From NCBI GenBank assembly GCA_012729785.1, contig JAAYCL010000036.1, forward strand, positions 59,174-123,173: a DNA stretch of 64,000 nucleotides, read 5' to 3'. Below are positions 43,805 to 59,693 of this stretch, piece after piece. The position numbers were made by a program, and so were the translations under genes. Every line of letters starts with the position of its first letter. Position 1 is the first letter of the stretch. This DNA is from Chlamydiota bacterium (lineage in GTDB: Bacteria > Auribacterota > Tritonobacteria > UBA1439). The notes under the pieces were generated by a model. The model saw only the letters and a program-made list of their open reading frames with translations, was not told the DNA's origin and made no database searches.

Positions 43805-43832
43805 ACCGCGGCGCCCGCCCGCCGTGCGTCCC

Positions 43833-45908
43833 ATGCGCATCAGGATCCAATCGAAGATACTCGCCAGCTTCATGGCGATGGTCGCCCTGATCATCGCCCT
43901 GCTGCTCTTCACGCTCTTCTCGATCCGCATCATGGCCGACGGCACCCGCCGGCTGGTCTACGTGCAGAAGAAGTCGGGGCTCATCACCGACCTCCAGATG
44001 ACGCTCGACCGGGCGGTCACGGCCCTCGGCGAGTATATGGTCTCGGGGAAGAAGTCGCGCCGGGCGACGTTCATCCAGCTGGTCCTCTTCTACACGAAGA
44101 ACATCGAGGCGCTCGAGCGGTCCTCCCTCGCGGGCCCGGCGGGGAAAGGGACAGGCGACGCCCGCGAGCGCGCCGCCGTCGCCGCGCTCAAGGCCGAGAT
44201 CGCCGTCATCGACCGGAACGCCCGCGAGATCCTCTCCCTCGTCGACAGGATAGAGCGGGCGCAGGGGCACCGCCTCATCCAGGATGTCGCCGCCTCGGTG
44301 AAGGACGCGCTCGAGAAGAAGGCGGAGGGGGGGGGCGGGGGCGCGCCGTCGCAGGAGCTCGCGATGCTCGGCGGGCTGCTCGGCGTCAGCACCCGCGACG
44401 CCCAGCGGCGCCTCGCGGAGCTGGAGGTGCTGAGCCGGACCATCTCGGAGTCCGAGTCGCGCCTGAAGGAGCTCTTGCTCCAGCTCGTCGAGGCGAAGGA
44501 CCGGGCGCTCGAGAAGATCGCCGAGCTGCATGAGCTGGCCCAGCGGGAGGGGCTCCAGGCGATCGGGACGGCCACGCTCGCCGACCGGCGGGCGAGGAAG
44601 ATCAGCCTCGTCGGCGGGGTGATCGTCCTCGCCTGCGGGCTGGTGTTGGCGCTCTACCTGTCGCGGTCGTTCTCGCGGCCGATCTCCGATCTCGACCGCG
44701 GGGCGCGTCTCATCGGCGAGGGGGACTTCGATCACCGGATGGTGTTGGACACCGGGGACGAGCTGCAGGACCTCGCCGAGCGTTTCAACACGATGGCAAA
44801 GAGACTGAAGGCGTCGTACGGCGAGCTCGAGGAGCGCGTCCGCGCACGGACGCGCGAGCTCGAGGCGTCGAACCTGCAGCTGCGCCGGCTCTTCAACGGC
44901 ATCTCCGACGGCATCTCGGTCATCGACAGGGAATTCCGGATCGTCAACGTCAACGACGGCATCGCCGCCATGGTTGGACGTAACGGCGCGGAGCTTGTCG
45001 GCGGCACCTGCCACCGCGTCTACCGGGGGAGCGACAGCCCGTGCCCGGGCTGCCCCGTCGCCGAGACCTTCAGGTGCGGGACGACCTCCTCCGGGGAGGT
45101 CCGCTGGGACGTCCCCGGCGGCAAGGCGAGGGACGTGGAGATCTTCAGCTTCCCTCTCATCGAGGAGGAGGGGGCGGTGACGCACGTCATCGAGTACGCC
45201 AAGGACGTCAGCGAGAGGAAGGCGCTCGAGCGGAAGCTGTTCCAGTCGGCCAAGCTCGCCGGGATCGGCACCCTCGCCGCGGGCGTGGCGCACGAGATCC
45301 GCAACCCGCTGGGGATCATGAAGGCCTCGGCGGACATGATCAGACGGGGCAGCAAAGAGGGGGAGCAGAACTGGGAGCTCGCCGGTTTCCTGATGGAGGA
45401 GGTCGACCGTCTGAACCGCGTCGTGACGAGACTCCTCGACTTCGCGCGTCCCTCCGCGCCCAACAGCGCTCCGTGCGACCTCGCCGGGATCCTGGAGCGC
45501 GCGGTCGCCCTTGTCGGCCCGCAGCACCGTCTCCAGGACGTGGAGGTGGATCGCGCCTACGCCCCGGGGATCCCGCGCGTGCGCGCCGACGGGGAGCAGC
45601 TCTGCCAGGTCTTCCTGAACCTGATCTTGAACGCCGTGCAGGCGATGTCGGGGAAGGGGCGCCTCTCCCTCTCCACCGGAACGGGGGAGGGGGAGACGGT
45701 CGTGGCGAGCGTGGGCGACAGCGGCGGCGGCATCGTTGGGAAGGACCTGGAGCAGATCTTCGACCCGTTCTTCTCGACGAAGGAGGGCGGCGCGGGCCTC
45801 GGCCTCGCCATCGTCTACCGGATCGTGGAGGCGCACAAGGGGCGGATCGAGGTGAACAGCACGCCGGGCAAGGGGACCACCTTCACGGTGACGCTGCCGG
45901 CTGCCTGA
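43833..45908 (+). CDS. Sensor histidine kinase (transmembrane, HAMP, PAS, HisKA, HATPase_c)
   Basis: Two transmembrane helices flank a roughly 230-aa sensor domain. A HAMP-like segment is followed by a PAS domain with a CxxC pair (CPGCPVAETFRC). H-box HEIRNPLG, N-box and G2-box GGAGLGLAIV. Confidence 0.85.
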   Translation: MRIRIQSKILASFMAMVALIIALLLFTLFSIRIMADGTRRLVYVQKKSGLITDLQMTLDRAVTALGEYMVSGKKSRRATFIQLVLFYTKNIEALERSSLAGPAGKGTGDARERAAVAALKAEIAVIDRNAREILSLVDRIERAQGHRLIQDVAASVKDALEKKAEGGGGGAPSQELAMLGGLLGVSTRDAQRRLAELEVLSRTISESESRLKELLLQLVEAKDRALEKIAELHELAQREGLQAIGTATLADRRARKISLVGGVIVLACGLVLALYLSRSFSRPISDLDRGARLIGEGDFDHRMVLDTGDELQDLAERFNTMAKRLKASYGELEERVRARTRELEASNLQLRRLFNGISDGISVIDREFRIVNVNDGIAAMVGRNGAELVGGTCHRVYRGSDSPCPGCPVAETFRCGTTSSGEVRWDVPGGKARDVEIFSFPLIEEEGAVTHVIEYAKDVSERKALERKLFQSAKLAGIGTLAAGVAHEIRNPLGIMKASADMIRRGSKEGEQNWELAGFLMEEVDRLNRVVTRLLDFARPSAPNSAPCDLAGILERAVALVGPQHRLQDVEVDRAYAPGIPRVRADGEQLCQVFLNLILNAVQAMSGKGRLSLSTGTGEGETVVASVGDSGGGIVGKDLEQIFDPFFSTKEGGAGLGLAIVYRIVEAHKGRIEVNSTPGKGTTFTVTLPAA

Positions 45909-45999
45909 GACGGGCGACAAGAGACGGGAGCCGAGGCGGTCGTCTGACGTCGGGGCAACCGGTTCCGCCGCGCAGGGCGCCGGCGGAAGAGAGGAGAGG

Positions 46000-47370
46000 A
46001 TGAAGCGGCGGGTGCTGGTGGTGGACGACGAGCGGAACATGCTCCGGTTGGCGGAGATGATGCTGGGACGGGCCGGCTACGAGCCGCTCCTGGCCTCCAA
46101 CGCCGCGGAGGCGATCGACCTCCTCGCCGCGCGGCGCGTGGACCTCGTGCTGACCGACCTCAAGATGCCGGGCGGGATGAGCGGGATCGACCTGCTCCGG
46201 GAGATGCGGCGCCGGGAGATTTCGACCCCGGTGGTCATCATGACCGCCTTCGGTACCATCAAGGGGGCCGTCGAGGCGATGCGGCACGGGGCGAGTGACT
46301 TCGTCCTCAAGCCGTTCGACGTCGAGAGCATCGAGACGGTCATCGCGAAGGTCTTCGAACTGGAGAAGGTGAAGCGGGAGAACGTCTACCTCAGGGAGGA
46401 GCTCGTCCGCGCCCGCGCGGCCCCCGAGATCGTGGGCGCGAGCGGGAGGATGCGCGCGATCCACTCCCTGATCGACCGTGTCGCCCCCACCGACGCCTCG
46501 GTGCTGCTCTTCGGCGAGACCGGCACGGGGAAGGAGCTCCTCGCGCGCTCGATCCATGAAAAAAGCGCGCGGCGGGAGGGGCTCTTCGTGGCGGTGAACT
46601 GCGCGGCGATCCCCGCTCCCCTCCTGGAGAGCGAGCTGTTCGGCCATGTGCGCGGGGCGTTCACCGGGGCGGCCGCGGAGCGGACCGGCAGGTTCGAGAA
46701 GGCGGACGGGGGCAGCATCTTCTTCGACGAGATCGGGGATATGGAGCCCGCGCTCCAGGCGAAGATACTCCGCGTCCTGCAGGAGAAGGAGTTCGAGAAG
46801 GTGGGGAGCAACGAGACGATCATCGTCAACGTGCGCGTGATCGCCGCCACGAACCGGGACCTCCGTCAGATGATCCGGGACCGTCTCTTCCGGGAGGATC
46901 TGTACTACCGTTTGAACGTCGTCAGCATCACGGTCCCGCCGCTCCGCGAGCGGACCGAGGATATCCCGGCGCTCGTGGAGCAGTTCGTCGCGAAATATTC
47001 GCGGGAGTGGGGCAAGGAGACCGCCCCGCCCCCGGCGGAGGTGCTGCGGGCCCTCGCCGCCTACCCGTGGCCCGGCAACGTCAGGGAGATGCAGAACGTC
47101 ATCGAACGGGCGGTGGCGGTGAACAGCACCGGCAGGATCGGCCTCGAGGACCTCCCCCCCGAGATCGTCCGGGGCGCCGCCGCGACGCCGGAGGGGGGCG
47201 TTTCCCCCGCTCCGCCGCCGGGCCTCGACGGGGCGGTCGCCGCCCTCGAGCGGGAGCTGATCGAACAGGCGCTCCGCGATTCCAACGGGGTGAAGGCACG
47301 CGCGGCGAAGCTGCTGGGGATCAGCGAGCGGAACCTGTGGTACAAGCTGAAGAAATACGGTATCGTCTGA
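46000..47370 (+). CDS. Sigma54-dependent response regulator, NtrC family
   Basis: Receiver domain (DDE...D...K). AAA+ domain with GETGTGKE and the GAFTGA sigma54-contact motif. C-terminal Fis-type helix-turn-helix. Confidence 0.9.
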   Translation: MKRRVLVVDDERNMLRLAEMMLGRAGYEPLLASNAAEAIDLLAARRVDLVLTDLKMPGGMSGIDLLREMRRREISTPVVIMTAFGTIKGAVEAMRHGASDFVLKPFDVESIETVIAKVFELEKVKRENVYLREELVRARAAPEIVGASGRMRAIHSLIDRVAPTDASVLLFGETGTGKELLARSIHEKSARREGLFVAVNCAAIPAPLLESELFGHVRGAFTGAAAERTGRFEKADGGSIFFDEIGDMEPALQAKILRVLQEKEFEKVGSNETIIVNVRVIAATNRDLRQMIRDRLFREDLYYRLNVVSITVPPLRERTEDIPALVEQFVAKYSREWGKETAPPPAEVLRALAAYPWPGNVREMQNVIERAVAVNSTGRIGLEDLPPEIVRGAAATPEGGVSPAPPPGLDGAVAALERELIEQALRDSNGVKARAAKLLGISERNLWYKLKKYGIV

Positions 47371-47390
47371 CCCGTCACGGAGGGGTGCGG

Positions 47391-48194
47391 ATGCATATGT
47401 CGGCGCGTGTGGCGGCGTTGCTGCTCGCGACCTCGGCCGCCGTCGGCCTCGGGGCCGAGGAGTCGCCGCGCCCGGCCGCCCCGTCCGCCGCCCCCCGGCG
47501 GCTCAGCCCCGCGGACGCGGAGTTCTGGCGGGAGCTCGCCCCGCGGCCGGCCGACCTCTGGGGGGAGACCACGGAGACGTTCAGGGGCTGGAACCTCGCC
47601 GCGGTCGCCGCGACCGCGGGGCTCGCGGGGGGGCTCGCCTTCCTCGACGCCGACATGCAGAAACCGTGGCGCGACGGCGACAGGCTGATCGGCGCCGACC
47701 TCTGCGACGTCGGCGACCTGGTCGGGCACCCGGGGGTCCAGGCCGGCGTGATGGGCCTCACCTACACGCTCGGCCAGGCGCTCGGCGACGAGACGCTCGC
47801 CAAAACCGGGAAGTCGATGGCGGAGACGATGATCTTCACCTCCCTCGCCACGGTCGCCCTCAAGGGGATCTTCAACCGCGAACGGCCCGACGGCGACGAC
47901 CATATGTCGTTCCCCTCGTGGCACGCCTCCGCGACCTTCGGGAACGCCACCGTCCTCGCGGAGTACTACGGGTGGAAGGCGGCGGTCCCGGCGTACCTCG
48001 TCTCGGCGTTCGTCGCCTGGAGCCGGGTCGAGGACAACAAGCATTTCGTGAGCGACGTGGTGGCGGGCGCCGCCGTGGGCTGCATCTTCGGGCACGCGGT
48101 GTCGCGCTACAACCTCAGGGTCCATCCGGCCGTCTCGATCGAACCGGTGCTGCTGGATGAGGGGGCCGGCGTCCAGGCCCGCGCGCGGTTCTGA
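47391..48194 (+). CDS. PAP2-family (type 2 phosphatidic acid phosphatase-like) phosphatase, secreted or membrane-associated
   Basis: Signal peptide. PAP2 motifs KGIFNRERP, SFPSWHAS and SRVEDNKHFVSDV. Starts 21 nt after the response regulator. Confidence 0.8.
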   Translation: MHMSARVAALLLATSAAVGLGAEESPRPAAPSAAPRRLSPADAEFWRELAPRPADLWGETTETFRGWNLAAVAATAGLAGGLAFLDADMQKPWRDGDRLIGADLCDVGDLVGHPGVQAGVMGLTYTLGQALGDETLAKTGKSMAETMIFTSLATVALKGIFNRERPDGDDHMSFPSWHASATFGNATVLAEYYGWKAAVPAYLVSAFVAWSRVEDNKHFVSDVVAGAAVGCIFGHAVSRYNLRVHPAVSIEPVLLDEGAGVQARARF

Positions 48195-48244
48195 CCTTCC
48201 GCGGCCGTTTCGCCGTTTGGAGGGTCGCTCGCACGGAGAGCGGC

Positions 48245-50356
48245 ATGAACGGAGCATCGAGGCGGATCGCCTTTCTGGCCGCCGCGGGCATCTGCCTGCG
48301 CGCGACGGCGGCCTCCGCCTACATCGGGCCGGGCGCGGGGTTCGCCTTCCTCGGCTCGTTCGTCTTCATACTGGGGGGGATGCTCCTGGCGGTGGTCGCG
48401 CTGCTCACCCTCCCCGCGCGCATCCTCCTGGCGCGCCTGCGCGGCAGGAAGGCGTTCCGGAGGGCCGCGGCGGAGCGGGTCGTCATCGTCGGCCTCGACG
48501 GCCTCGACCCCGCCCTCGCGTCGGGGTGGATGCGGGAGGGGAAGCTGCCGAATCTCTCCGCCCTCGCCGCCGAGGGGTGCTTCTCCCCGCTGGCGACCTC
48601 GAATCCCCCGATCTCCCCGGTGGCGTGGTCGTCGTTCATCACCGGCTCGAACCCGGGCAAGCACAACGTATTCGATTTCCTGATGCCCGACCGGCGGAAC
48701 TGCCTCCCCGCCCTCTCCTCCGCCTCGATCGAACCCACGCGGAGGACGCTGCGCCTCGGGCGGCTGCGGGTCCCCCTCGGGAAGCCGACCATCCGGCTCC
48801 TCCGGAAAGGGGTCCCGTTCTGGAGGATACTCGGGGAGCACGGGATCCGCAGCGTCGTGCTCAAGGTGCCGATCACCTTCCCCCCGGAGAGATTCCGCGG
48901 CATGCTCCTCTCCGGCCTCTGCGCGCCTGATCTCAAGGGCTCCCAGGGGACATTCGCCTTCTACACCACGGCCGACCCTCCCGCCGGCTCCGTCACCGGG
49001 GGCTGCCGCGTGCGCCTGGAGGGGGACGGTCCGGTGTTCGAGACGCGCATCTCCGGTCCCCGCGACCCGTACGGGAGGGGGTTCGATTTGTCGATCCCGA
49101 TGCGGATCGAGGTCGATGCGGCGCGGGGGCTCGCCCGCCTGCGGATAGCCGGACGCTCGCACACGGTGCGGGCGGGGACGCTCTCGGACTGGATCCCTCT
49201 CGTCTTCCGCGCCCCGCTCGGCACGCGGGTCCGCGGCATCGCGCAGTTCTTCCTGAAACAGGTTGCCCCGCGCGTGGAGCTCTACCTCTCCCCCGTCAAC
49301 ATCGACCCCGAGAACCCGGCCCTCCCGGTGTCGCACCCGCGCGTCTACGCCTCGTACCTGGCCAAGGTCGTCGGCCCGTTCGCCACGCTGGGGCTCCCGC
49401 AGGACACCTGGGCGCTGAACGAGGGGATCCTCACCGACGATGCGTTCCTCCAGCAGGCGTACCGGATCCACGACAGGCTCGAAGAGATCTTCTTCCACTC
49501 CCTGAAGAGGATGCGGAGAGGGATGCTCTGCTGCGTCTTCGACACCACCGACGCCGTCCAGCACGAGTTCTGGCGCTACATGGCCGACGGCCACCCGGCG
49601 CTGAAGGGAGGGGAGCCCCCCCCCGGCCCCCCGGTGATCGAACAACTGTACCGGAGGATGGACGGCCTGATCGGGAGGGTGCGGGCGGCGCTGGGGCCGG
49701 ATGACGTGTTGATGGTCGTCTCCGACCACGGCTTCACGCTGTTCAAACGCTGCGTGAACCTGAACCGGTGGCTGTTCGAGAACGGCTACCTCGCCCTCAA
49801 GGACGGCGCCTCGTCGTGCGGGGACTGGTTCGAGGGGGTCGACTGGGAGCGGACGAGGGCGTACGGGTTCGGCCTTTCGGGGCTCTACCTCAACCTGAAG
49901 GGGCGGGAGAGCCGGGGCACGGTGACGCCGTCGGAGGCGGGGGCGCTGAAGCGGGAGATCGCGGGGAGGCTCGCGGGGCTCAGGGACGTCGCGGGGGGCG
50001 CGGAGGCGGTCGCAGCGGTGTACGATACCGCCGCCGTCTACGCCGGCCCCTACGTCGAGAACGCCCCGGACCTCGTGGTGGGGTACGCGCCGGGGTTCCG
50101 CTGCTCGTGGGAATCGGTCACCGGCAGGGTCGGCGCGCAGGTCTTCTCGGACAACGACAAGGCGTGGAGCGCCGACCATTGCATCGACCACCGGTTCGTG
50201 CCGGGGGTCTTCTTCTGCAGCCGGCCGGCGGCGGCGGAGGCACCGCGCATCGTGGACATCGGCCCGACCGTGCTCGACCTGTTCGGCGTCGCGCCCCCCG
50301 CGCACATGGACGGCCGGCCGCTCGGCGTGGCGGGGAAAGGGATGCGGAACGGATGA
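48245..50356 (+). CDS. Alkaline-phosphatase-superfamily protein, type I phosphodiesterase/nucleotide pyrophosphatase-like, N-terminal membrane anchor (paralog 1)
   Basis: A transmembrane helix, then VVIVGLDGLDP (metal site) and ATSNPPISPVAWSSFITGSNPGKH (nucleophile region homologous to the nucleotide pyrophosphatase TFPNHYSIVTG). C-terminal VVSDHGF metal site. 703 aa. Confidence 0.75.
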   Translation: MNGASRRIAFLAAAGICLRATAASAYIGPGAGFAFLGSFVFILGGMLLAVVALLTLPARILLARLRGRKAFRRAAAERVVIVGLDGLDPALASGWMREGKLPNLSALAAEGCFSPLATSNPPISPVAWSSFITGSNPGKHNVFDFLMPDRRNCLPALSSASIEPTRRTLRLGRLRVPLGKPTIRLLRKGVPFWRILGEHGIRSVVLKVPITFPPERFRGMLLSGLCAPDLKGSQGTFAFYTTADPPAGSVTGGCRVRLEGDGPVFETRISGPRDPYGRGFDLSIPMRIEVDAARGLARLRIAGRSHTVRAGTLSDWIPLVFRAPLGTRVRGIAQFFLKQVAPRVELYLSPVNIDPENPALPVSHPRVYASYLAKVVGPFATLGLPQDTWALNEGILTDDAFLQQAYRIHDRLEEIFFHSLKRMRRGMLCCVFDTTDAVQHEFWRYMADGHPALKGGEPPPGPPVIEQLYRRMDGLIGRVRAALGPDDVLMVVSDHGFTLFKRCVNLNRWLFENGYLALKDGASSCGDWFEGVDWERTRAYGFGLSGLYLNLKGRESRGTVTPSEAGALKREIAGRLAGLRDVAGGAEAVAAVYDTAAVYAGPYVENAPDLVVGYAPGFRCSWESVTGRVGAQVFSDNDKAWSADHCIDHRFVPGVFFCSRPAAAEAPRIVDIGPTVLDLFGVAPPAHMDGRPLGVAGKGMRNG

Positions 50357-52320
50357 ACAGACGGAGAACGGCGACGGCGGCGGTGGCCGCGGCGCTCGTC
50401 TGCGCGTGCCTCCTCCCGGGCTGCGCGCCGCGGGATCGCTCCGGCGGGAAGCGGGTCGTCGTCCTCGCCTTCGACGGGATGGACCCCCGGATCGTGCGCG
50501 AGATGTTCGCCAAAGGCGGGCTGCCGAACATGAAAAGACTGTCGGAGACCGGCGGCTTCACCGAGCTCTGGTCGAGCGTCCCGCCGCAGAGCCCGGTCGC
50601 CTGGTCCAATTTCATCACCGGCAAGAACCCCGGGGGGCACGCCATCTTCGACTTCATCCACCGGGATCCCGCCACCTACCTGCCGTTCCTCTCCACCTCG
50701 GAGACGATCCCCCCGCGCCGCACGCTCGCCCTCGGCGACTACATCCTGCCCCTCTCCGCAGGGACCGTGCTCCTCAAGCGCGAGGGGAAGGCGTTCTGGG
50801 AGTACCTCGAGGAGGGCGGGATACCGGCGACGATCTTCAGGATCCCCTCCAACTTCCCCCCCGTCCCGGGCCGCGCGCAAAGCCTCTCCGGGATGGGAAC
50901 GCCGGACCTGATGGGCACCTACGGGATCTACCAGTTCTTCACGAGCGACCCCGCCGACATCCCGAAGGACCCCTCGGGCGCCGAGTTCACGCTGGTCGAG
51001 CCCCGGGACGGCGCCGTGCGGGCGGAGATCGCGGGCCCCGCGAACTCCTACCGCAAGGAGGCGCCGCGGCTCTCCATCGCCTTCACCGCCTGGATCGACG
51101 AGGCGCACGGCGCCGCCAGGATCGATCTGCCCGGCGAAAGCCTGATCCTGCGGCAGGGGGAGTGGAGCGACTGGCTGGTCCTCGAGTTCAAGCCCCTCGC
51201 GCTGGCCCCGGCGGTGCGGGGGATCTGCCGCCTGTACCTGAAGGAGGTCCGGCCCCGATTCAGACTGTACGTCACTCCGATCAACATCGACCCGAAGGCC
51301 CCCGCACTCCCGATCGACACCCCCCGCGGCTACGCCGCCGGGGTGGCGGAGGCGGTCGGCTATTTCTACACGCAGGGGATGCCGGAGAACACGAAGACGC
51401 TCACCAACGACACCTTCACCATCGACGAGTTTTACACGCACTTCCGGATGGTTCTGGACGAGAACCACCGCCTCTTCGACCATATCTGGGAACGGTACCG
51501 CGACGGCCTCCTCTTCTACTACTACTCGAGCACCGACCTCGGCACGCACATCTTCTGGCACCTCCGCGACCCGAAGCATCCGATCCACAACGCGCAGGCG
51601 CGCGCGCGCCTCGGCGACGTGATCGAGGAGACCTACGCGGAGATGGACGGGGTGGTCGGGAAGGTGATGGCCGAGATCGGCGACGGCGCCACGCTCATCG
51701 TGATGTCGGACCACGGCTTCGCGCCGTTCTACGTCTCGTTCAATCTGAACGGCTGGCTGCGGGAGAACGGCTACCTGGTCCTGAGGGACGGGGCGGCGGA
51801 GGGGTCGCTCTTCACGAACGTGGACTGGCGGAAGACGCGCGCCTACGCCATCGGCCTGAACTCCCTCTACCTGAACCTGGCGGGGAGGGAGCGGGACGGG
51901 ATCGTCGATCCGGGGGCGGAGCGGGACGCGCTCCTGCGGGAGCTCGCCGCGAAGCTGGAGGCGGTGCGGGACCCGGGGAACGGCTCGGCCGTGATCAAGC
52001 GGGTCTACCGCGCGGACGAGGTCTACTCGGGCGAGTATGCGGGGCGGGCCCCCGACCTTGTGGTCGGCTACGACTGGGGGTACCGGACCTCGTGGGAGAG
52101 CGCCCTGGGCGACGTGAAGGGGACGCTCCTCGCCACGAGCACCGAGGAGTGGAGCGGCGACCATTGCGGCGCGATGGAGGTCGTGCCGGGCATCCTCTTC
52201 TCGAACAAGAGGATCGCCCTCACGGATCCGCACCTCTACGATCTGACGCCGTCCATCCTCGCGGAGTTCGGGCTCCCGAAGCCCGCGGATATGATCGGCC
52301 GCAACGTCTTCGAACAGTGA
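50353..52320 (+). CDS. Alkaline-phosphatase-superfamily protein, type I phosphodiesterase/nucleotide pyrophosphatase-like lipoprotein (paralog 2)
   Basis: Lipobox LLPGC. VVVLAFDGMDP, SSVPPQSPVAWSNFITGKNPGGH and VMSDHGF motifs. ATGA overlap with paralog 1. About 40% identical to paralog 1 in colinear blocks. Confidence 0.75.
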   Translation: MNRRRTATAAVAAALVCACLLPGCAPRDRSGGKRVVVLAFDGMDPRIVREMFAKGGLPNMKRLSETGGFTELWSSVPPQSPVAWSNFITGKNPGGHAIFDFIHRDPATYLPFLSTSETIPPRRTLALGDYILPLSAGTVLLKREGKAFWEYLEEGGIPATIFRIPSNFPPVPGRAQSLSGMGTPDLMGTYGIYQFFTSDPADIPKDPSGAEFTLVEPRDGAVRAEIAGPANSYRKEAPRLSIAFTAWIDEAHGAARIDLPGESLILRQGEWSDWLVLEFKPLALAPAVRGICRLYLKEVRPRFRLYVTPINIDPKAPALPIDTPRGYAAGVAEAVGYFYTQGMPENTKTLTNDTFTIDEFYTHFRMVLDENHRLFDHIWERYRDGLLFYYYSSTDLGTHIFWHLRDPKHPIHNAQARARLGDVIEETYAEMDGVVGKVMAEIGDGATLIVMSDHGFAPFYVSFNLNGWLRENGYLVLRDGAAEGSLFTNVDWRKTRAYAIGLNSLYLNLAGRERDGIVDPGAERDALLRELAAKLEAVRDPGNGSAVIKRVYRADEVYSGEYAGRAPDLVVGYDWGYRTSWESALGDVKGTLLATSTEEWSGDHCGAMEVVPGILFSNKRIALTDPHLYDLTPSILAEFGLPKPADMIGRNVFEQ

Positions 52321-52450
52321 GGGGTCGATCGGCGCCGCCGGGGGACGCAACGCGGCTCCTAGACGGAGGCGGAGCGTCGCGACGGACGCGGGCGACGGGG
52401 ACAGACGAAACGATCCGCGAAGATCCGCGGCACGAGCAGGGGAGGCGCAG

Positions 52451-52642
52451 ATGGCCAGGAAGGTGAGGATCGAGGAGGGGCTGTACGGGAAGATCGAGAA
52501 GGCCGCGGCCGCGGCGGGCTATCCGAACGTCGATGAGTTCGTGGTCCATCTTCTCGAGAAGGCCGTCGCCGGAGTCGGCGGCGGAGACGACGACGCGGAA
52601 CGGGTGAAGGAGCGGCTCAGGGGGCTCGGGTACCTCTCATGA
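52451..52642 (+). CDS. Ribbon-helix-helix (CopG/Arc/NikR-N-like) small DNA-binding protein
   Basis: 63 aa: KVRIEEGLYGKIEKAAAAAGYPNVDEFVVHLLEKAV fits a beta-strand, helix, helix ribbon-helix-helix fold. ATGA overlap with the downstream membrane protein. Confidence 0.5.
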   Translation: MARKVRIEEGLYGKIEKAAAAAGYPNVDEFVVHLLEKAVAGVGGGDDDAERVKERLRGLGYLS

Positions 52643-53454
52643 TCAGTGCCGCGGGACAGGCGCTGACGCGCCTCTTCGATCTGATTCTCCTCCCGGCGAG
52701 GGGCGCCGCGCCGGTCTGGGGGATCGCCCTCGCCGCCCTCCTGACGGCCGCGGGCGTCCTCATCTCCTACCGGCTCGTCTCCGACCAGGATGCGATACGC
52801 CGCCTCAAGAAGCGCGTCCAGGGGCACCTCCTCGGCATCTACCTGTACCGGGACGACCCGCGCGCGATGCTCGGCTCCCTCGGCCGGGTCTGGTCAAACT
52901 CCATGCGGTACCTGGCATATTCCCTCGTCCCGTTCGCGGTCGCGTTCGTCCCCGTGGCGCTCGTCTGCCTGCAGCTCGATCTCCGCTACGCGCACCGTCC
53001 GCTTCGCCCGGGTGAACGCATGACCGTCTCCGTCGAGCTCGACCCAAGCGCCCCGCCCCCCGCGCTCTCCTCCACCGGCGGATTGCAGATCGAGACGGCG
53101 CCCCTGGCGATCGGCGGCACCGGGGAGACGAACTGGAGGGTGCGCGCGGTCGCGCAGGGCGCGCAGGCGGTCACGGTCGCCGTCGGCGAGGAGACGCTCG
53201 CCCTCCCCGTCGCGGTCGGCGGGGCGGCGCGGCCGCTCTGCCGCCGGCGGCTTCGGTCCCCCGTGCGGCAGGGGCTTCTCTGCCCCGCGGGCGATCCGAT
53301 ACCCCGCGGGAGCGCGGTGCGGGCGGTGCGGGTCTCCTACCCCCCCGAGCGGGTCCGCCTGGCGGGGATGCGCCTGCACTGGAGCGCCTCCTTTTTCGTG
53401 CTCGCCCTCGCCTTCGGCCTGCTTCTGAAAAGGCCGTTCGGAGTTGATTTCTGA
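52639..53454 (+). CDS. Hypothetical membrane protein (about 4 transmembrane helices), no recognisable family
   Basis: Hydrophobic segments at the N-terminus, middle and C-terminus, with an Ala/Gly-rich soluble loop. Translationally coupled to the ribbon-helix-helix gene. Confidence 0.4.
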   Translation: MISAAGQALTRLFDLILLPARGAAPVWGIALAALLTAAGVLISYRLVSDQDAIRRLKKRVQGHLLGIYLYRDDPRAMLGSLGRVWSNSMRYLAYSLVPFAVAFVPVALVCLQLDLRYAHRPLRPGERMTVSVELDPSAPPPALSSTGGLQIETAPLAIGGTGETNWRVRAVAQGAQAVTVAVGEETLALPVAVGGAARPLCRRRLRSPVRQGLLCPAGDPIPRGSAVRAVRVSYPPERVRLAGMRLHWSASFFVLALAFGLLLKRPFGVDF

Positions 53455-53472
53455 CCTCGGGGCGGCTATACT
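53444..53472 (+). promoter_or_regulatory. Putative sigma70-type promoter, TTGATT -17 nt- TATACT, for cysDN
   Basis: -35 TTGATT at 53444-53449, a 17-nt spacer, -10 TATACT at 53467-53472. It lies 43 nt before the cysD TTG start, with an AAGGA RBS in between. Confidence 0.4.
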
Positions 53473-53514
53473 GTCGCTCTCCAAACAGTGCGCCCGGCAA
53501 CAAAAGGACGACCA

Positions 53515-54318
53515 TTGGACCACCTCTCTGAACTCGAGCACAAGACGATCTATGTCGTGCGGGAGGCGTACAGCCGCTTCCGCAACATCGGGATGCTCTG
53601 GTCGATCGGCAAGGACTCGACCTCGCTCCTCTGGATCTGCCGCAAGGCGTTCTTCGGGAAGGTCCCGTTCCCGGTCATCCACATCGACACCGGCCACAAG
53701 TTCAAGGAGATCTACGCATTCCGGGACCGCTACGCGAAGGAGTGGGGGCTCGACCTGCGGGTCGCGAAAAACGACGCGGCGCTCGCCGCCGGGATGGGGC
53801 CCGACAAGGGGGCGAAGCTCGACTGCTGCCATGCCCTCAAGACGCAGGCCCTGAAGGAGTTCATCGCCCGCGAGAAGCTCGACGCCATCCTCCTCGGCAT
53901 CCGCCGCGACGAGCACGGCATCCGGGCCAAGGAGCGCTACTTCTCGCCGCGCGACGAGAAGTTCGAGTGGGACTACCAGAACCAGCCCCCCGAGCTCTGG
54001 GACCAGTTCAAGTCCAGCAGCGAGGGGCACCACCACCTCCGCGTGCATCCGATCCTCCACATGACCGAGACCGACATCTGGCGTTACGTTCGGCGGGAGG
54101 GGATGCCGGTGGTCGACCTGTATTTCGCCAAGGGGGGGAGGCGCTACCGCTCGATCGGCTGCGCCTGCTGCTGCGCGACCGTGGAGTCGGACGCGGAGAC
54201 CGTCGACGCCGTCATCCGCGAGATAGAGACGACGAACGTCTCCGAGCGTTCGGGGCGGGCGCAGGACAAGGAAGACGCGTACACGATGCAGAAGCTGCGG
54301 GCGCTCGGCTACATGTGA
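53515..54318 (+). CDS. cysD: Sulfate adenylyltransferase subunit 2
   Basis: PP-loop SIGKDS. Colinear with E. coli CysD from its N-terminus ([17 protein letters not shown] versus THLRQLEAESIHIIRE). TTG start with an AAGGA RBS 6 nt upstream. The upstream in-frame GTG at 53488 lacks an RBS. Confidence 0.9.
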
Positions 54319-54343
54319 ACGGCGGGCGGCGAAAGGGAGATCG

Positions 54344-55594
54344 ATGGCGCAGACACGCGGGCGCGAGAACATGAAGATCGTCATCGTGGGCCATATGGAC
54401 CACGGCAAGTCCACCCTCATCGGGCGGCTCCTCTACGATACCCGTTCGCTCTCCCCCGACCGGATGGAGGTCATCCGGAAGACGTGCGAGGAGATGGGGA
54501 AGCCGGTCGAGTTCGCCTTCGTGATGGACCACCTCCGCGAGGAGCGGGAGCGGGGGATGACGATCGACACCGCCCAGACCTTCTTCCACACCGCGCGCCG
54601 CGACTACGTGATCATCGACGCCCCCGGGCACAAGGAGTTCATGAAGAACATGATCACCGGGGCGAGCCAGGCCGAGACGTCCATCCTCATCGTGGATGTG
54701 CATGAAGGGGTGATGGAGCAGACGCGGCGGCACGCCTATGTGCTCGGGATGCTCAACCTGAGGAAGAACATCCTGGTCCTGAACAAGATGGACCTCGTCG
54801 GTTACGACAAGGCGGCGTTCGAGCGCGTGCGCGGCGAGATCGCCGCCTTCCTCAAACGTCTGGGGATCGCCCCCTCGTTCGTCATTCCGGTCTCGGGGAC
54901 CGGCGGGGACAACTTCGCCTCCCCCTCCGGGAAGATGCCCTGGTACAAGGGGCCGACGCTCATCGACGCCCTCGACACCCTCGAAAAGGACCGGGACCTC
55001 AGGGAGAAGCCGCTCCGGATGCCCGTGCAGGACGTTTACGAGCGGGAGGCGGGGCGCATCGTCGCGGGCAGGATCGAATCCGGCTCGCTTCGCGAGGGGG
55101 ACGCGGTGAGGATCTTCCCCGGGGAGGAGCGGGCGACCGTGGCGAAGGTTCTCGAGTTCGGCGCGACGCGCGCCTCCGCGGAGGCGGGGGAGTGCATCGG
55201 CGTGCTGCTCTCGGGGGGGGCGGCGCCGCGGCGCGGCGATCTCCTGGGAGCCCTCGGCGACCCCCCGCGCCTCGGTACGGCGGTCAGCGCGAACCTGTTC
55301 TGGATGGCCGCGGAGGCGTGCGCGGCAGGCGAGAGGCTCACGTTGCGCCTTGGAACGCAGGAGACGCCCTGCAGGATCGAAACGATCGGGAAGAGGATCG
55401 ACTCCTCGACGCTCGACGTCATCGAGGAGAACGCCCGCGCGCTCGAAGAGACCGAGGTGGGCGAGGTCCTGGTCCGCACCGAACGCCCGGTCGCCTTCGA
55501 GCTCTTCAGCGACATCCCCGAATTGGGCCGTTTCGTCCTCGAGAGGGGGAACGACATCGTCGCCGGGGGGATCATCACCCGTCCCGGCCCCTGA
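54344..55594 (+). CDS. cysN: Sulfate adenylyltransferase subunit 1 (GTPase), short form without APS kinase domain
   Basis: G1 [10 protein letters not shown]3 DAPGH and G4 NKMD motifs. 416 aa ending after translation-factor domain III. No CysC domain. Confidence 0.9.
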
Positions 55595-55610
55595 TCCAAA
55601 GGAGACCGGA

Positions 55611-56897
55611 ATGCCTCCCCGCCCGCGCGCGGTCATCGTCGGCCTCGACGGCGTACCCCACCGGCTCATCGAGCGGTACGCCTCCGACGGGACGATGCCG
55701 AACCTCGGGGCGATACTCGCGACCGGGACGCTCCGGAGGATGGCCTCCTCCATCCCGGAGATCTCCTGTGTCGCCTGGAGCACGATCATCACCGGCAGGA
55801 ACCCGGGCGTTCACGGCATCTACGGGTTCATGAACCTGCGGCCGGGCACCTACCAGTTCTCGTTTCCCGCGTTCGGAGACCTGAAGGCGCCTCCGTTCTG
55901 GGAGGAGATGCCGGACACGCGGGCCGCGATCGTCAACATCCCGGGCACCTATCCCGCGCGCACCATGAACGGGGTTACCGTGTCGGGTTTCGTAGCCCTC
56001 GACCTCGCGCGGGCGACATATCCGAAACACCTCATCCCGGAGCTCGAGCGGCTCGGCTACCGGATCGACGTGGACGCGGCCAAGGGCCACTCCGACATCG
56101 ACGCCTTCCTGCGCGACCTCGACGCGACGCTCGAGGCGAGGATCCGGGCGGCCCGCTTCCTGCTCGCACGGGAGCGCTGGGATATCTTCTTCCTCGCCTT
56201 CACCGGGACCGACCGGCTCTCCCATTTCCTCTTCGAGGCGTTCGAGAACGACGCCCACCCCCGCGCCGGCGCCTTCCGGGCGCACTTCAAACGGATCGAC
56301 GGCTATCTCGGCGAGCTGTACGAGACAGTCGGGGCCGACGATCTCCTTGTGCTGCTCTCCGACCACGGCTTCGACCTCGTCGAGACGGAGATCAACGTCA
56401 ACAGGGCCCTCGCCGACGCCGGCTTTCTGAAGATCGCGAGCCCGACACGGGATTCGTTCGAAGGGGTGGGGGAGGGGAGCCGGGCGTTCGCCCTCGATCC
56501 CGCGCGGATTTATGTCAACCTCCGGGGGCGGTACCCGCGCGGATGCGTCGATCCCGGCGACCGGGAGCGCGTCGCCCGGGACGTCGCCGGCGCCCTCCAG
56601 GATCTCTCGGTGAACGGGAGGCCGGTGATCCGCAGCGTCTTCTCGAGAGAGGAGCTCTATGCGGGGAGCCGGATCGCCGAGGCCCCCGATCTCGTGCTCC
56701 TGCCCCGGCGGGGGTTCGATCTGAAGGGGCGCCTCGCCGCACCGGCGCTGGTCTCCAGGGGCGTCTTCACCGGGATGCACACGCACGACGACGCGTTCCT
56801 CTTCGTGCGATCCTCGGCCATCCCGCCGTCGGAGATCCCCGCCGCGCCGTGGGTCGGGGATGTGCGCGCCCTCGTCGAGCGCGGGCTCGCCGGCTAG
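55611..56897 (+). CDS. Alkaline-phosphatase-superfamily protein, type I phosphodiesterase/nucleotide pyrophosphatase-like, cytoplasmic (paralog 3)
   Basis: No signal peptide. VIVGLDGVPH, ASSIPEISCVAWSTIITGRNPGVH and LLSDHGF motifs parallel paralogs 1 and 2. AAAGGAG RBS. Confidence 0.75.
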   Translation: MPPRPRAVIVGLDGVPHRLIERYASDGTMPNLGAILATGTLRRMASSIPEISCVAWSTIITGRNPGVHGIYGFMNLRPGTYQFSFPAFGDLKAPPFWEEMPDTRAAIVNIPGTYPARTMNGVTVSGFVALDLARATYPKHLIPELERLGYRIDVDAAKGHSDIDAFLRDLDATLEARIRAARFLLARERWDIFFLAFTGTDRLSHFLFEAFENDAHPRAGAFRAHFKRIDGYLGELYETVGADDLLVLLSDHGFDLVETEINVNRALADAGFLKIASPTRDSFEGVGEGSRAFALDPARIYVNLRGRYPRGCVDPGDRERVARDVAGALQDLSVNGRPVIRSVFSREELYAGSRIAEAPDLVLLPRRGFDLKGRLAAPALVSRGVFTGMHTHDDAFLFVRSSAIPPSEIPAAPWVGDVRALVERGLAG

Positions 56898-57042
56898 TGC
56901 CGCCGTTTCGGGCGCCTCCGCTTCGTCATCGTGCCCCCCGCCTGTCGAGGAGGAAGGGCGCCGTGCGCCGGATGGGTCGATCCCGGGGCGGGGGAGCGGA
57001 TCGCCCTCAGGCCATCTGACCGATCACGGCGGCCGGCCGTTC

Positions 57043-57051
57043 TGCTACAAT
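57043..57051 (+). promoter_or_regulatory. Putative extended -10 element TGcTACAAT upstream of the nucleotide-sugar dehydrogenase gene
   Basis: TGn plus TACAAT sits 44 nt before the ATG at 57095, in a 197-nt intergenic region. AAAGGAAGG RBS. Confidence 0.25.
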
Positions 57052-57094
57052 ACCCCTTTGCAGCCGGATGCCGCGGCGCTGAAAGGAAGGCAGG

Positions 57095-58744
57095 ATGAAC
57101 GCGAACAAGCGGCTCTACTCGATCAGCCCCTCCGGGGCTAAATTCCCGCTGCCCCGTCCGGAGGAGTACCCCAGGGAGTTCGCCCGGGTGAAGAAACTCG
57201 CCGCGGCCCACCGAAAGGAGAAGCGGGAGGTCGTGGTGGTGATGGGGGTCGGGTTCGTCGGCGCCGTGATGGCGGCGATCGTCGCGGACAGCAGGGGGAA
57301 GGGCGGCAGGCCGTCGAAGTTCGTGATCGGGATGCAGCGCCCGAGCGTCCGCTCCTACTGGAAGATACCGCTCCTCAACCGCGGCGTCCCCCCGGTGGAG
57401 GCGGAGGACCCCGAGGTGGCGCGGATCATCCGCCGCTGCGTCCTCGAGACGAAGACCCTTGTCGCGACCTGGGTCTACGACGTGCTCTCCCTCGCCGACG
57501 TGGTCGTCGTGGACGTCCAGTGCGACTACGCCAAGTACGCCCTCGGCGACGTGCGCAAGGGGTGGGCCGACATCGCCGCCCTCGAGGAGTCGCTGGAGAT
57601 CATCGCCCGGCATATCCGGCCGGAGACGCTGGTCCTCATCGAGACGACCGTGCCCCCCGGGACGACCGAGCAGGTGGCGTACCCGATCATGCGGAAAACG
57701 TTCCGGAAGCGCGGCATCGCCTCCGATCCGCTCCTCGCCCACAGCTACGAGCGGGTGATGCCGGGGAAGGAGTACGTCGCCAGCATCCGCGACTTCTGGC
57801 GCGTCTGCAGCGGGATCAATCCCCGGGCCCGGGAACGGGTGGTGCGGTTCTTGAACGAAATCCTGAACACGAAGCGGTACCCGCTCACCGTCCTGGACCG
57901 TCCGATCGAGTCGGAGACCGCGAAGATCGTCGAGAACAGCTACCGCGCCGCCTGCCTCGCGTTCCTCGACGAGTGGAGTCTCTTCGCCGAGCGGAACGGC
58001 GTGGACCTGGTCAAGGTGATCAACGCGATCAAGGTGCGCCCCACGCACTCCAACATCATCTTCCCGGGCCCCGGCATCGGCGGCTACTGCCTGCCGAAGG
58101 ACGGCGGGCTCGGGATGTGGGCCTACCGGCATATCCTGGGCTTCGAGGACGAGATCTTCAAGATCACCCCGCTCGCCATCGACATCAACGACACGCGAGG
58201 CCTCCATGCGGCCCAGATCACGCGGGACGCCCTGCGGAACATGAACCGCCCGGTCGCCGCGGCGGAGATCCTGCTCCTCGGCGCCTCGTATCGCGAGGAC
58301 GTCGGCGACACCCGCTACAGCGGGTCCGAGATCATTGCGCGGCGCCTCTCGGAGATGGGGGCGGAGATCAGGGTCCATGACCCGTACGTGCGGTCGTGGC
58401 CGGAGCTGGAGAAGCAGGAGTCGTACCCCGGGAAGGGGCACGGGAAGAAGGGGTTCTTCCGCGGGCAAAACCGGCTCGCGGAGGTGCGGGTCTGCAGCGA
58501 CCTCGAGAAGGGGCTCTCCGGCGCGGACGCGGTGATCTTCGCCGTCCGGCACGCGCCGTATCTGCGCCTCGATCCCGACGAGGTGGTCCGCATGATCGGG
58601 GGGGCCGCCGCGATCATCGACTGCTTCGGCATGCTCGACGACGCGAAGATCAAGCGGTACTTCGAGCTCGGCTGCGAGGTGAAGGGGCTGGGGCGCGGGC
58701 ATATCCAGCGGATCAAGGACGAGGTGCGGAGGGAGCGGCGGTAG
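57095..58744 (+). CDS. Nucleotide-sugar dehydrogenase (UDP-glucose/GDP-mannose dehydrogenase family), long form
   Basis: Rossmann motif VVVVMGVGFVGAVMAAIVA and the catalytic GGYCLPKD region. 549 aa, with a roughly 45-aa basic N-terminal extension before the first beta-strand. Confidence 0.85.
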   Translation: MNANKRLYSISPSGAKFPLPRPEEYPREFARVKKLAAAHRKEKREVVVVMGVGFVGAVMAAIVADSRGKGGRPSKFVIGMQRPSVRSYWKIPLLNRGVPPVEAEDPEVARIIRRCVLETKTLVATWVYDVLSLADVVVVDVQCDYAKYALGDVRKGWADIAALEESLEIIARHIRPETLVLIETTVPPGTTEQVAYPIMRKTFRKRGIASDPLLAHSYERVMPGKEYVASIRDFWRVCSGINPRARERVVRFLNEILNTKRYPLTVLDRPIESETAKIVENSYRAACLAFLDEWSLFAERNGVDLVKVINAIKVRPTHSNIIFPGPGIGGYCLPKDGGLGMWAYRHILGFEDEIFKITPLAIDINDTRGLHAAQITRDALRNMNRPVAAAEILLLGASYREDVGDTRYSGSEIIARRLSEMGAEIRVHDPYVRSWPELEKQESYPGKGHGKKGFFRGQNRLAEVRVCSDLEKGLSGADAVIFAVRHAPYLRLDPDEVVRMIGGAAAIIDCFGMLDDAKIKRYFELGCEVKGLGRGHIQRIKDEVRRERR

Positions 58745-58754
58745 GCTTGCGAAG

Positions 58755-59693
58755 TCAGCGACCGGGGTGCGGCGGCGGGGCAGCCGTCTTCCCGCAGACC
58801 TCCCGCGCGACGAAGCGCGCCAGGGAGCCGCAGATGCTCTGCGCCACGTCGTCGGGAACCCCCTCCGGCGTTCTCGATTTGAACCGCATGTCGCACTGGT
58901 CGTTGACATAGTCGACCGAGACCCACCGCATCGAATCGGTCAGGGCGATCTCGGTCGAGAAGAAGTTCAACCGCGCGATCGCGCGGATCTCGCGCGTGAT
59001 CGCCTCCATCCTCCCCAGCCCCCATCGCGCCGCCTCGTCCGTCGTCACCCGTTCGTAGATGTGCCGTTGCGGGTCCCACCAGCAGAGCAGGGTGTCACCC
59101 CCGGCGTAGTAGGCGCGGAACCAGGCCTTCCTCCCCTCGATGAGCCTCGGGACGATATTCTCCTGGACGAGGATCCGGTCGTGCCTGAACTCCATCCGCG
59201 CCGCCTGCACCTCCGCGAGGGAACGCGCGCCCACCAGGACCCCGAGGCCGCCGCCTCCGTGCGCGGGCTTGACGATGAACGGAACCCCCAGCTCCCCGAG
59301 GACGGGGAGCGCCTCCGCGGGGTCGTCGTCCCTGAAGACCGGCAGGATGATTGTGCGGGGGACGTCGATGCCGCGGATCGAGAACTCGTGGTGCATCGCG
59401 GCCTTGTCGATCGCCCGCTCGACGTCGGGGAGCGGGTTCACGCAGAGCGTCTCCGTGTTTCCGAGCGCGGCGGCGAGCGGGACGAAAGCGGGGTTCGTGT
59501 CGGAGGCGCGGTCGAAGAACGCCCTAAAGGCGAGCTCCCCCGAGGCCACCGCGCGCTCGATCTCGGCGAGGCTCCCGGGATCCACGACGCAGGTGGAGAG
59601 GCCGCACCCCAGGCAGTTCCGGCGGAGGAGGGCGATGAAATCCTTGTCGTACTTCCATTCCCAGGCGATGCAGATATCGAGTGTCGTGGTCAT
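58755..59693 (-). CDS. ATP-grasp domain protein (RimK/glutathione-synthetase-like fold), function unknown
   Basis: PFIVKPAHGGGGLGVLVGARS (ATP-grasp glycine-rich loop and Lys) and a downstream acidic Mg-binding region. 312 aa. Confidence 0.6.
   Translation of the reverse strand: MTTTLDICIAWEWKYDKDFIALLRRNCLGCGLSTCVVDPGSLAEIERAVASGELAFRAFFDRASDTNPAFVPLAAALGNTETLCVNPLPDVERAIDKAAMHHEFSIRGIDVPRTIILPVFRDDDPAEALPVLGELGVPFIVKPAHGGGGLGVLVGARSLAEVQAARMEFRHDRILVQENIVPRLIEGRKAWFRAYYAGGDTLLCWWDPQRHIYERVTTDEAARWGLGRMEAITREIRAIARLNFFSTEIALTDSMRWVSVDYVNDQCDMRFKSRTPEGVPDDVAQSICGSLARFVAREVCGKTAAPPPHPGR

Follow-up and report, generated by a model that had tools for sequence, protein, structure and literature searches.

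A conserved seven-gene set joins CysD and CysN to three alkaline phosphatase superfamily paralogs in an Auribacterota genome and its relatives

Where an ATP sulfurylase is encoded without an adenosine 5'-phosphosulfate (APS) kinase beside it, what uses the APS? This question is raised by a 64,000-nt stretch (hereafter the window) of contig JAAYCL010000036.1 from a genome labeled Chlamydiota bacterium (GCA_012729785.1; Auribacterota in GTDB), in which genes for CysD and CysN share a block with those for three paralogs of the alkaline phosphatase (AP) superfamily, here named APA, APB, and APC. Because the window has a G+C content of 70%, genes were called by third-position GC rather than by the length of open reading frames, and domains were assigned by Pfam and NCBIfam scans of the block proteins. 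By these means, 12 co-directional genes were counted on the + strand at 43824-58744 (11 are itemized below), which agrees with the original prediction of a contiguous 12-gene block with named domains. Comparison with about 165 related loci (flanks ±10 kb) shows that two units, each conserved independently of the other, make up the block together with clade-specific genes. Three layers of conservation are found, namely the four-gene module APA-APB-sm63-mem271, the trio CysD-CysN-APC, and clade-specific neighbors; the seven genes of the first two layers are the conserved core. We tentatively interpret this core as a system for sulfonucleotide-driven transfer or processing of sulfo groups that spans the inner membrane.

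The CysD protein, which is the catalytic subunit of ATP sulfurylase (53488-54318, +; alternative start at 53515), has the PP-loop motif SIGKDS and scores 340.9 bits against NCBIfam PRK05253 (cut-off 195), although the cut-off of the stricter TIGR02039 is not reached (252 versus 396.6). It matches 1zun_A with an E-value of 2e-61 and belongs to a short subfamily (about 266 aa) that is 62–85% identical across phyla. CysN, which is the GTPase subunit (54344-55594, +; 416 aa), has the motifs G1, G3, and G4, including NKMD, passes TIGR02034 (350.7 bits; cut-off 336.1), and covers positions 19-432 of the 632-position bifunctional CysN/CysC model, such that the kinase domain is lacking. Judging from the presence of CysC, TauE, or a sulfotransferase in related loci, CysD and CysN are predicted to make APS from ATP and sulfate. 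No tblastn match to cysC or cysH was found in the window, and none to cysH in any related locus. The queries for these searches were E. coli sequences, and the CysC query recovered CysC in three related loci (L023, L025, and L170). The expectation that cysDN would stand in the block without cysC or a reductase for APS or 3'-phosphoadenosine 5'-phosphosulfate (PAPS) thus holds within the 64-kb window. Moreover, no PF00685/PF13469 sulfotransferase is present among the block proteins, and tblastn with a 214-aa sulfotransferase from relatives was empty in the window.

For the genes around APC, a scan with one genome per species gave 80 loci, all from uncultivated lineages, including Planctomycetota, Omnitrophota, Chloroflexota, Desulfobacterota, Acetothermia, Nitrospinae, Spirochaetes, and two archaea. 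These were compared by tblastn and all-against-all clustering. Among the 63 loci with enough flank, 42, distributed over many phyla, have CysD-CysN directly upstream of APC on the same strand, and the three genes often overlap (e.g., L003). A TauE-family permease or a DUF2061 membrane protein may be inserted between cysD and cysN. Of these 80 loci, only L023 and L025 have CysC; it adjoins APC in both, as it does in the APA-centered locus L170. In these three loci (L023:1103-4442, L025:3055-6660, and L170:2666-6700), which belong to Desulfobacterota-like organisms, CysC lies between a distant APC-like paralog (25–28% identity) and APC, an arrangement that points to the use of PAPS in place of APS. 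Another partner of APC is a short-chain dehydrogenase/reductase (SDR) that resembles UDP-sulfoquinovose (SQ) synthase (SQD1). It adjoins APC in 19 loci (L005 among them) and is directly downstream in 14 of the 69 loci with enough flank. This SQD1-like protein matches NF041015 over the full length with 400 bits, short of the cut-off (575 bits), and its N-terminus is extended by 85 aa that include five invariant Cys (HN..TCWNCP...C..C..C; e.g., L016:4374-5900). Its gene is followed by those for a dedicated thioredoxin, an epimerase, and an AglJ-like GT2. Complete arrays of CysD-CysN-APC-SQD1-like-thioredoxin are found in L036, L049, and L066, and such clusters may be sufficient by themselves to lead from activated sulfate to a sulfosugar. 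Neither an SQD1-like gene nor a linked thioredoxin is present in the window. Finally, the loci with stand-alone APC (L022, L065, L075, L079, L081, and others) have no further recurrent partner.

Conservation around APA was examined in 80 APA-centered metagenome loci and additional context look-ups, with many contigs truncated. APA is accompanied by APB in 64 of these loci and by sm63 and mem271 in 62 each, and the four-gene module was found in metagenome-assembled genomes (MAGs) labeled Acidobacteriia, Planctomycetota, and Auribacterota, as well as in many untyped metagenome contigs. The gene order is APC-APA-APB-sm63-mem271 in 26 loci and APB-sm63-mem271-APA in the Acidobacteriia MAG contig L086 and many metagenome loci. 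L170 has an APC-like gene, CysC, APC, APA, APB, sm63, and mem271. All seven core genes occur in the order of the window in L001, L007, and L010, and in L089 as far as the contig reaches. In five Planctomycetota loci (L027, L038, L046, L067, and L080), they occur as two adjacent blocks, and L102 has the permuted order CysD-CysN-APC-APA-APB-sm63. The core genes therefore recur together in several lineages as a conserved unit, rather than being scattered. Taken together, APC is the hub through which cysDN and the APA/APB module are connected. In 12 loci, the module adjoins the 214-aa PAPS-type sulfotransferase (PF13469/PF00685), which directly follows APA in 11 of them; the order there is APB-sm63-mem271-APA (e.g., L121:3910-4563, L153:11378-11932, and L149:9067-9696). 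An APC orthologue is missing from all 12 of these loci, and the sulfotransferase is missing from all 26 APA-centered loci with APC. Separately, the module is flanked by fusions of a 'sulfatase' and TPR repeats in L086 (876-6741), L088 (5171-6769), and 25 other loci. These proteins have Thr at the position of the formylglycine Cys (T-T-P-S-H) and are unlikely to be true sulfatases.

An alternative is that APC supplies a sulfosugar synthase with reduced or activated sulfur from APS. The CysD-CysN-APC trio of the window would then serve such a pathway encoded elsewhere in the genome, and the four-gene module would be a separate system that lies beside the trio by chance (e.g., phosphodiesterases that remodel the head groups of lipids or glycans). 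The 19 loci with the SQD1-like SDR and its thioredoxin, epimerase, and GT2 companions, the three full arrays, and the conserved 5-Cys extension all point in this direction. In addition, according to PMC4388408, it is not known what donates sulfur to UDP-SQ synthases in vivo, and cysDN is near APA in only two of the 80 APA-centered loci. However, the window has no SQD1-like gene or linked thioredoxin, and APC has no invariant Cys, which makes a CysH-like thiosulfonate mechanism unlikely. Moreover, a shared pathway is suggested by the close kinship of APC with APA and APB and by its place at the front of their operon in 26 loci, and the seven genes remain together in at least two gene orders. 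On balance, we find this alternative doubtful.

What kind of enzymes are the three paralogs? APA (48245-50356, +; 703 aa; PF01663/COG3379), APB (50353-52320, +; 655 aa), and APC (55611-56897, +; 428 aa; E-value 4e-39) match PF01663 with 99.7, 106.2, and 135.6 bits, respectively (cut-off 23). The APA and APB matches are each interrupted by an insertion of about 200 aa, which APC lacks. APA and APB share 42% identity over 624 residues, and APC is about 30% identical to both in the two halves of the catalytic core. The motif S-x-V-A-W-S-x-x-x-T-G-x-N-P-x-x-H is common to all three. All of 27 aligned APC sequences keep the two-metal ligands D13, D201, H205, D251, H252, and H390, and all of 20 APA sequences keep the equivalent D85, D436/H440, D494/H495, and H645. 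Three paralogs of PF01663 with conserved catalytic residues, as first described from the window, are thereby confirmed. The predicted nucleophile is an invariant Ser (S52 in APC and S124 in APA) in the motif S[PSC]VAW. This residue aligns with the catalytic Thr64 of PhnA, which is replaced in the variant chain of 3t02; the COG3379 enzymes therefore use Ser where nucleotide pyrophosphatases (NPPs) use Thr. An invariant Arg lies beside the first Asp/His metal motif (TDRLxHF). APA has three invariant Cys, and APC has none among the 27 sequences. A CysH-like APS reductase activity of APC was considered and rejected as a leading idea based on this lack of an invariant Cys.

The AlphaFold (AF2) model of APC has a pLDDT of 93.5, and the nearest solved folds are PhnA (1ei6 and 3szy) and the Xac NPP (7mw8), with TM-scores of 0.56-0.64 and a probability of 1.00. 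Foldseek E-values against PhnA, the bacterial NPP, and ENPP1-7 range from 1e-17 to 1e-13 at 13–21% identity, and a sequence search of solved structures with APC found PhnA only (E-value 2e-5). The assignment to the nucleotide pyrophosphatase branch is thus correct with regard to family, metal ligands, and the fold of APC, but not with regard to the nucleophile. When the paralogs were classified among PF01663, sulfatases, and LtaS-like proteins, all three matched PF01663 only. A formylglycine sulfatase (PF00884) was rejected on this ground, and also because the motif is S-[PSC]-V-A-W rather than C/S-x-P-x-R. An enzyme of the LtaS/EptA type was rejected as well, given that APA has a single transmembrane helix, APB has a signal peptide only, and both belong to PF01663. 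The NCBIfam scan gave no model for APA, APB, sm63, or mem271. The APA family is large (>5,400 matches below 1e-20), and the JGI label for it is simply 'predicted AlkP superfamily phosphohydrolase/phosphomutase'.

The paralogs differ in their predicted locations. The N-terminus of APA has a signal-like segment that ends in AxA, a YIGPGAGFA motif, one transmembrane helix, and a stretch rich in Arg and Lys. Among 85 APA homologues, 84 have Y[IAV]GPGAG, and all 85 have at least five Lys or Arg in the 22 residues before the catalytic domain. Based on the positive-inside rule, APA is predicted to be tethered to the cytoplasmic face of the inner membrane. The description of this paralog as membrane-anchored therefore holds for the transmembrane helix, with the catalytic domain predicted to face the cytoplasm. 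APB overlaps with APA by 4 nt and has the lipobox LLPGC, such that the window copy is a predicted lipoprotein. Many of its homologues have Tat (RRxFLK; RREFLK) or lipoprotein signals, and APB is thus taken to be exported. APC has no signal and is predicted to be soluble and cytoplasmic. The lipobox and the missing signal bear out the earlier call of one lipoprotein and one cytoplasmic paralog.

Two small genes complete the module. The product of mem271 (52639-53454, +; 271 aa) has no Pfam match. It has three transmembrane helices and an Ig-like beta-sandwich that is predicted to be periplasmic (AF2 pLDDT 95.8). No whole-chain analogue was found for this model in the PDB, where matches are limited to the beta domain (SbsC and filamin; TM-score ≤0.24). 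The family contains 1888 clusters at 50% identity, with the members listed being about 270 aa long. A role as transporter or flippase is not supported, as the confident model has only the three helices and the Ig-like domain. The sm63 gene (52451-52642, +; 63 aa; third-position GC 0.87) overlaps with mem271 by 4 nt and lacks a Pfam match as well. The protein is conserved, with an N-terminal part that looks like a ribbon-helix-helix in its sequence, an acidic linker, and a C-terminal LRGLGY tail. Homologues were found by tblastn at the same position in the 62 APA loci mentioned above and in L001, L007, L010, L027, and others. Of the proteins in the window, only CysD (54289-54315) and sm63 (52613-52639) have such an L(K/R)xLGY C-terminal tail, and the P. 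syringae CysD (1zun_A) ends in the same way. The tail is also found on the DUF2061 protein between cysD and cysN in 13 of 13 cases (e.g., L042:5967-6281) and on an exported Thr-type 'sulfatase' in nine of 17 (e.g., L084:7418-8851), and it occurs internally in the sulfatase-TPR proteins (e.g., L086:876-2882). Judging from its distribution, this tail may be a CysN-docking peptide or a site of Tyr modification.

The fold and the metal site, which are of the nucleotide pyrophosphatase/phosphonoacetate hydrolase type, also invite another explanation. The ATP sulfurylase reaction is thermodynamically unfavorable and needs product removal. The AP paralogs may accordingly be hydrolytic helpers, with APC and APA hydrolyzing pyrophosphate, 3'-phosphoadenosine 5'-phosphate (PAP), or excess APS or PAPS, and APB scavenging extracellular nucleotide or organophosphate esters. 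The tight coupling of APC to cysN would agree with such a role, and the adjacency of CysC in three loci would suit a PAP phosphatase. Nevertheless, hydrolysis of APS would be futile, and no PAP is made without CysC. Helper functions also leave unexplained the conserved membrane-anchored and exported paralogs, sm63, and mem271, as well as the 26 loci with APC at the head of the module but no cysDN, and those with APC beside the SQ-synthase-like gene, also without cysDN. We consider this explanation unlikely.

The sulfur connection of the APC-family loci is well supported, since five independent kinds of neighbor adjoin them (CysDN, CysC, the TauE permease, the PAPS-type sulfotransferase, and the SQ-synthase-like gene with its thioredoxin), with APC as the common element. 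Building on gene content, domain families, conserved catalytic residues, predicted topology, and synteny, we infer APS or PAPS as the substrate, sulfuryl transfer in place of hydrolysis as the chemistry, and the acceptor of the sulfo-transfer or processing system proposed at the outset. In this system, CysDN would make APS, and APC and/or APA would consume the sulfonucleotide, such that the unfavorable sulfurylase reaction is pulled forward. Through the active-site Ser, they would pass the sulfo group on to an acceptor that is bound in the envelope or associated with the membrane. On the outer side, the group would be transferred or trimmed by APB, which is probably kept at the membrane along with mem271 and its Ig domain, and sm63 would be a small regulator or adaptor. 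This reading is favored, if only tentatively, because APS needs a consumer and because a nucleophile for covalent catalysis sits in a nucleotide-binding fold. A further reason is that the cytoplasm-facing and exported paralogs form an overlapping gene pair with a dedicated membrane protein. Finally, in loci that lack APC, the operon contains a canonical sulfotransferase, and the mutual exclusivity of the two fits functional replacement.

Several points weigh against this reading. The exclusivity of APC and the sulfotransferase is mostly a contrast between clades, not the outcome of many independent events. Where the sulfotransferase is present, the AP enzymes may do something else, e.g., processing of a by-product or product. 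The COG3379 subfamily is uncharacterized, and the enzyme activities are putative assignments from sequence. Two-metal sites of the NPP type normally attack phosphorus, which would convert APS to AMP and sulfate in a futile cycle. The occurrence of cysDN within 10 kb in only two of the 80 APA-centered loci (L102 is one of the two) indicates that the module needs no adjacent sulfurylase. In addition, cysC may be located elsewhere in the genome, beyond the 64 kb searched, and no acceptor-specific gene is consistently linked among the loci compared. A bolder version of the proposal is that the COG3379 enzymes are a new class of sulfotransferases without the PAPS-sulfotransferase fold, in which APC and the membrane-tethered APA would load a membrane-bound carrier or acceptor in the cytoplasm from APS via the Ser, APB would deliver the group to envelope molecules outside, and the same enzyme would supply the sulfur donor to the SQ-synthase-like enzyme in related clusters. 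We think this version somewhat improbable.

The remaining genes of the block belong to the clade-specific layer. The histidine kinase (HK; 43824-45908, +) has two transmembrane helices and a periplasmic region of about 225 aa, followed by HAMP, PAS, HisKA, and HATPase domains. An orthologue is present upstream of APA in L089 (78% identity) and was not found in L001, L090, or any of the 80 APA-centered metagenome loci. The NtrC-type regulator (46000-47370, +) has Response_reg, Sigma54_activat (E-value 1e-70), and HTH_8 domains and carries GAFTGA within HVRGAFTGAAAE. Its best NCBIfam match is AtoC, under the cut-off of that model, and the regulator gene is directly upstream of PAP2 or APA in L007, L010, and L089. 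The PAP2 phosphatase gene (47391-48194, +) begins 20 nt past the regulator stop codon. Its product matches PF01569 (52.9 bits versus a cut-off of 27.2; E-value 4e-14), has a predicted N-terminal signal peptide, and retains all three PAP2 motifs (KGIFNRERP; PSWH, a variant of PSGH; and SRVEDNKHFVSD). PAP2 is a facultative neighbor, seen only in the window and in L007, and in L089 the regulator is followed directly by APA. The NDP-sugar dehydrogenase (57095-58744, +; 549 aa) has three UDPG_MGDP_dh domains and scores 186 bits against TIGR03026 (cut-off 189.8). Its gene is separated from APC by a 197-nt gap with a TACAAT box and was found among the related loci only in L006 and L007.

The distribution of these genes follows the relationships of the genomes. 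The closest relative (L089/L006, a MAG labeled Chlamydiota; 76–89% protein identity) has the order gatB-accD-folC-nagA-glmS-HK-regulator-APA-APB-sm63-mem271-CysD and so on, without PAP2. L007 has regulator-PAP2-APA and L010 has regulator-APA. Candidatus Tritonobacter (L001) has the seven core genes without the two-component system, PAP2, or the dehydrogenase, and Candidatus Euphemobacter (L090) has the four-gene module only. In all, the kinase and regulator were seen in four close relatives, PAP2 in two genomes, and the dehydrogenase in three. These genes are lineage-specific additions, and the kinase-regulator pair is linked to the module in one sub-clade only. The original prediction had counted PAP2 and the sugar dehydrogenase as parts of the module, which is at odds with this distribution.

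Control of the block by sigma54 had also been proposed. The sites were searched with the -24/-12 pattern TGGCAC-N5-TTGCW (≤2 mismatches) and with looser regular expressions. No match with ≤2 mismatches was found in 43-59 kb, and the whole window contains five matches, compared to 9.9 expected by chance. No site with at least 8 of 11 positions occurs in the regions that precede PAP2, APA, and sm63 in the window, PAP2 and APA in L007, and APA in L010 and L001. The best sigma54-like element in the window, TGGCATCGGCGATGCA (32683-32698, -; two mismatches), is far from the block and inside a predicted + strand gene (31978-33276). The sole promoter-like site in 43-60 kb is TTGATT-17-TATACT (53444-53472, +), a sigma70-type consensus match just upstream of cysD. 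As no -24/-12 element was found and this sole site is of the sigma70 type, sigma54 control is unsupported, although the regulator with its GAFTGA motif is indeed present. Upstream of the block is a housekeeping run of gatB, accD, folC, nagA, and glmS. The glmS stop is 19 nt before the kinase start, and the kinase-regulator pair is probably simply co-transcribed, to judge from the gene arrangement. Similarly, the tight spacing suggests co-transcription of the kinase, regulator, PAP2, APA, and APB.

This setting bears on a further alternative, in which cysDN serves assimilatory sulfate reduction and the phosphodiesterases serve scavenging under phosphate or sulfate starvation, controlled by the two-component system. 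CysD and CysN pass or come near the NCBIfam cut-offs for genuine sulfate adenylyltransferase, the block lies within a housekeeping run, and Pho-regulated phosphodiesterases exist among PF01663 proteins. On the other hand, none of about 50 loci has cysH, cysI, or cysC beside cysDN, while APC is constant there. The regulator is NtrC/AtoC-like rather than PhoB-like, neither a PhoB-type regulator nor a pst gene adjoins the block in the window, and the search for a sigma54 promoter was negative. With two of the three paralogs predicted to be cytoplasmic, they do not look like ordinary secreted Pho-type phosphodiesterases, and the synteny is conserved across phyla. This alternative is therefore very unlikely.

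Some other features of the window are worth recording. Genes beyond 58755 are on the opposite strand. The first of these (58755-59693, -) encodes a 312-aa protein with weak similarity to ATP-grasp enzymes (RimK/D-Ala-D-Ala ligase), which occupies the same place in L006 and L007 (53–70% identity) and is further off in L010. PQQ-type beta-propeller proteins are encoded near the module both in the window (60700-62271, -; 523 aa) and in Candidatus Tritonobacter (L001:1-1220; 1303 aa), where the gene is directly upstream of APA. With Rfam, the whole window gave a single match, to one tRNA gene (34408-34478), and none to a riboswitch in the block. Located 20-40 kb upstream, a set of envelope-glycan genes (2598-25212) encodes a PMT_2 GT-C glycosyltransferase, LPG_synthase_TM, two GT4, proteins that are RmlC-, RmlA-, RmlB-, and RmlD-like by sequence, an AsnB-like amidotransferase, a methyltransferase, and a WecA/MraY-like transferase. 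It is possible that the product of these genes is the acceptor of the modification.

The usual view of sulfation in bacteria is that glycans, lipids, and peptides are modified via PAPS and cytoplasmic sulfotransferases. The loci described here, from many phyla, tie a dedicated ATP sulfurylase with no APS kinase beside it to an uncharacterized and very widespread enzyme subfamily. If this link reflects chemistry, it would represent a new route for the use of activated sulfate, and a class annotated as 'alkaline phosphatase family protein' in Planctomycetota, Acidobacteriota, Omnitrophota, Chloroflexota, and candidate phyla would gain a function. The question of the in vivo sulfur donor in SQ synthesis would then become directly testable. 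Should an APS-driven relay of AP-fold enzymes exist, it would be the first sulfation relay across the bacterial inner membrane. Even in the case of mere helper hydrolases, a conserved module of five to seven genes is defined and the idea of sigma54 control is corrected.

How does the module compare with known systems? Literature searches (COG3379, AlkP superfamily, and PAPS-independent sulfotransferase) found no description of it, in line with the original prediction, which knew of no described system of such membership. Among systems that make sulfosugars, the similarity to SQD1/SqdB and Agl3 lies in the APC relatives that are encoded immediately upstream of an SQ-synthase-like SDR with an AglJ-like GT2, although the window lacks the synthase. 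Known SqdB/Agl3 operons lack the 5-Cys N-terminal extension and the dedicated thioredoxin of the APC-linked SQD1-like loci, and for the archaeal Agl3, the in vivo transfer of sulfur to UDP-glucose is reported as still unknown (PMC4388408). NodPQ-NodH, RaxPQ-RaxST, CysDNC-Stf0, and the C. jejuni HS:19 cluster resemble the block in having a dedicated CysD/CysN pair beside genes for modification of envelope or secreted molecules. The HS:19 cluster is arranged as cysD-cysN-permease-cysC-sulfotransferase (PMC8743553), and its permease resembles the anion permease (TauE) inserted in some relatives of the block. However, these PAPS-dependent clusters have an APS kinase and a sulfotransferase, whereas the window lacks both and has the three AP paralogs, the ribbon-helix-helix-like sm63, and the Ig-domain mem271 instead. 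Moreover, the exported APB implies a step outside of the cytoplasm, where PAPS is not available. EptA/MCR-1, LtaS, and OpgB/MdoB share with the block enzymes an AP-like fold, a Ser/Thr nucleophile that suits covalent ping-pong transfer, and an association with the membrane. Those transferases, which are PF00884 proteins, combine a membrane domain of several helices at the N-terminus with a single metal site, a Thr nucleophile, and a phospholipid donor. In contrast, the block enzymes fall within PF01663, with two metal sites, a Ser, and one transmembrane helix or a lipid/Tat anchor; they form a cytoplasmic/periplasmic pair and are tied to APS synthesis by gene linkage. Finally, the Xac NPP, ENPP1-7, and PhnA have the same six metal ligands as APC, and this nucleotide-binding branch fits an AMP-containing substrate such as APS. 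Compared to these proteins, the block enzymes are distinguished by Ser in place of Thr, the Arg of TDRLxHF, the insertion of about 200 aa in APA and APB, and the predicted cytoplasmic location of two of the three paralogs.

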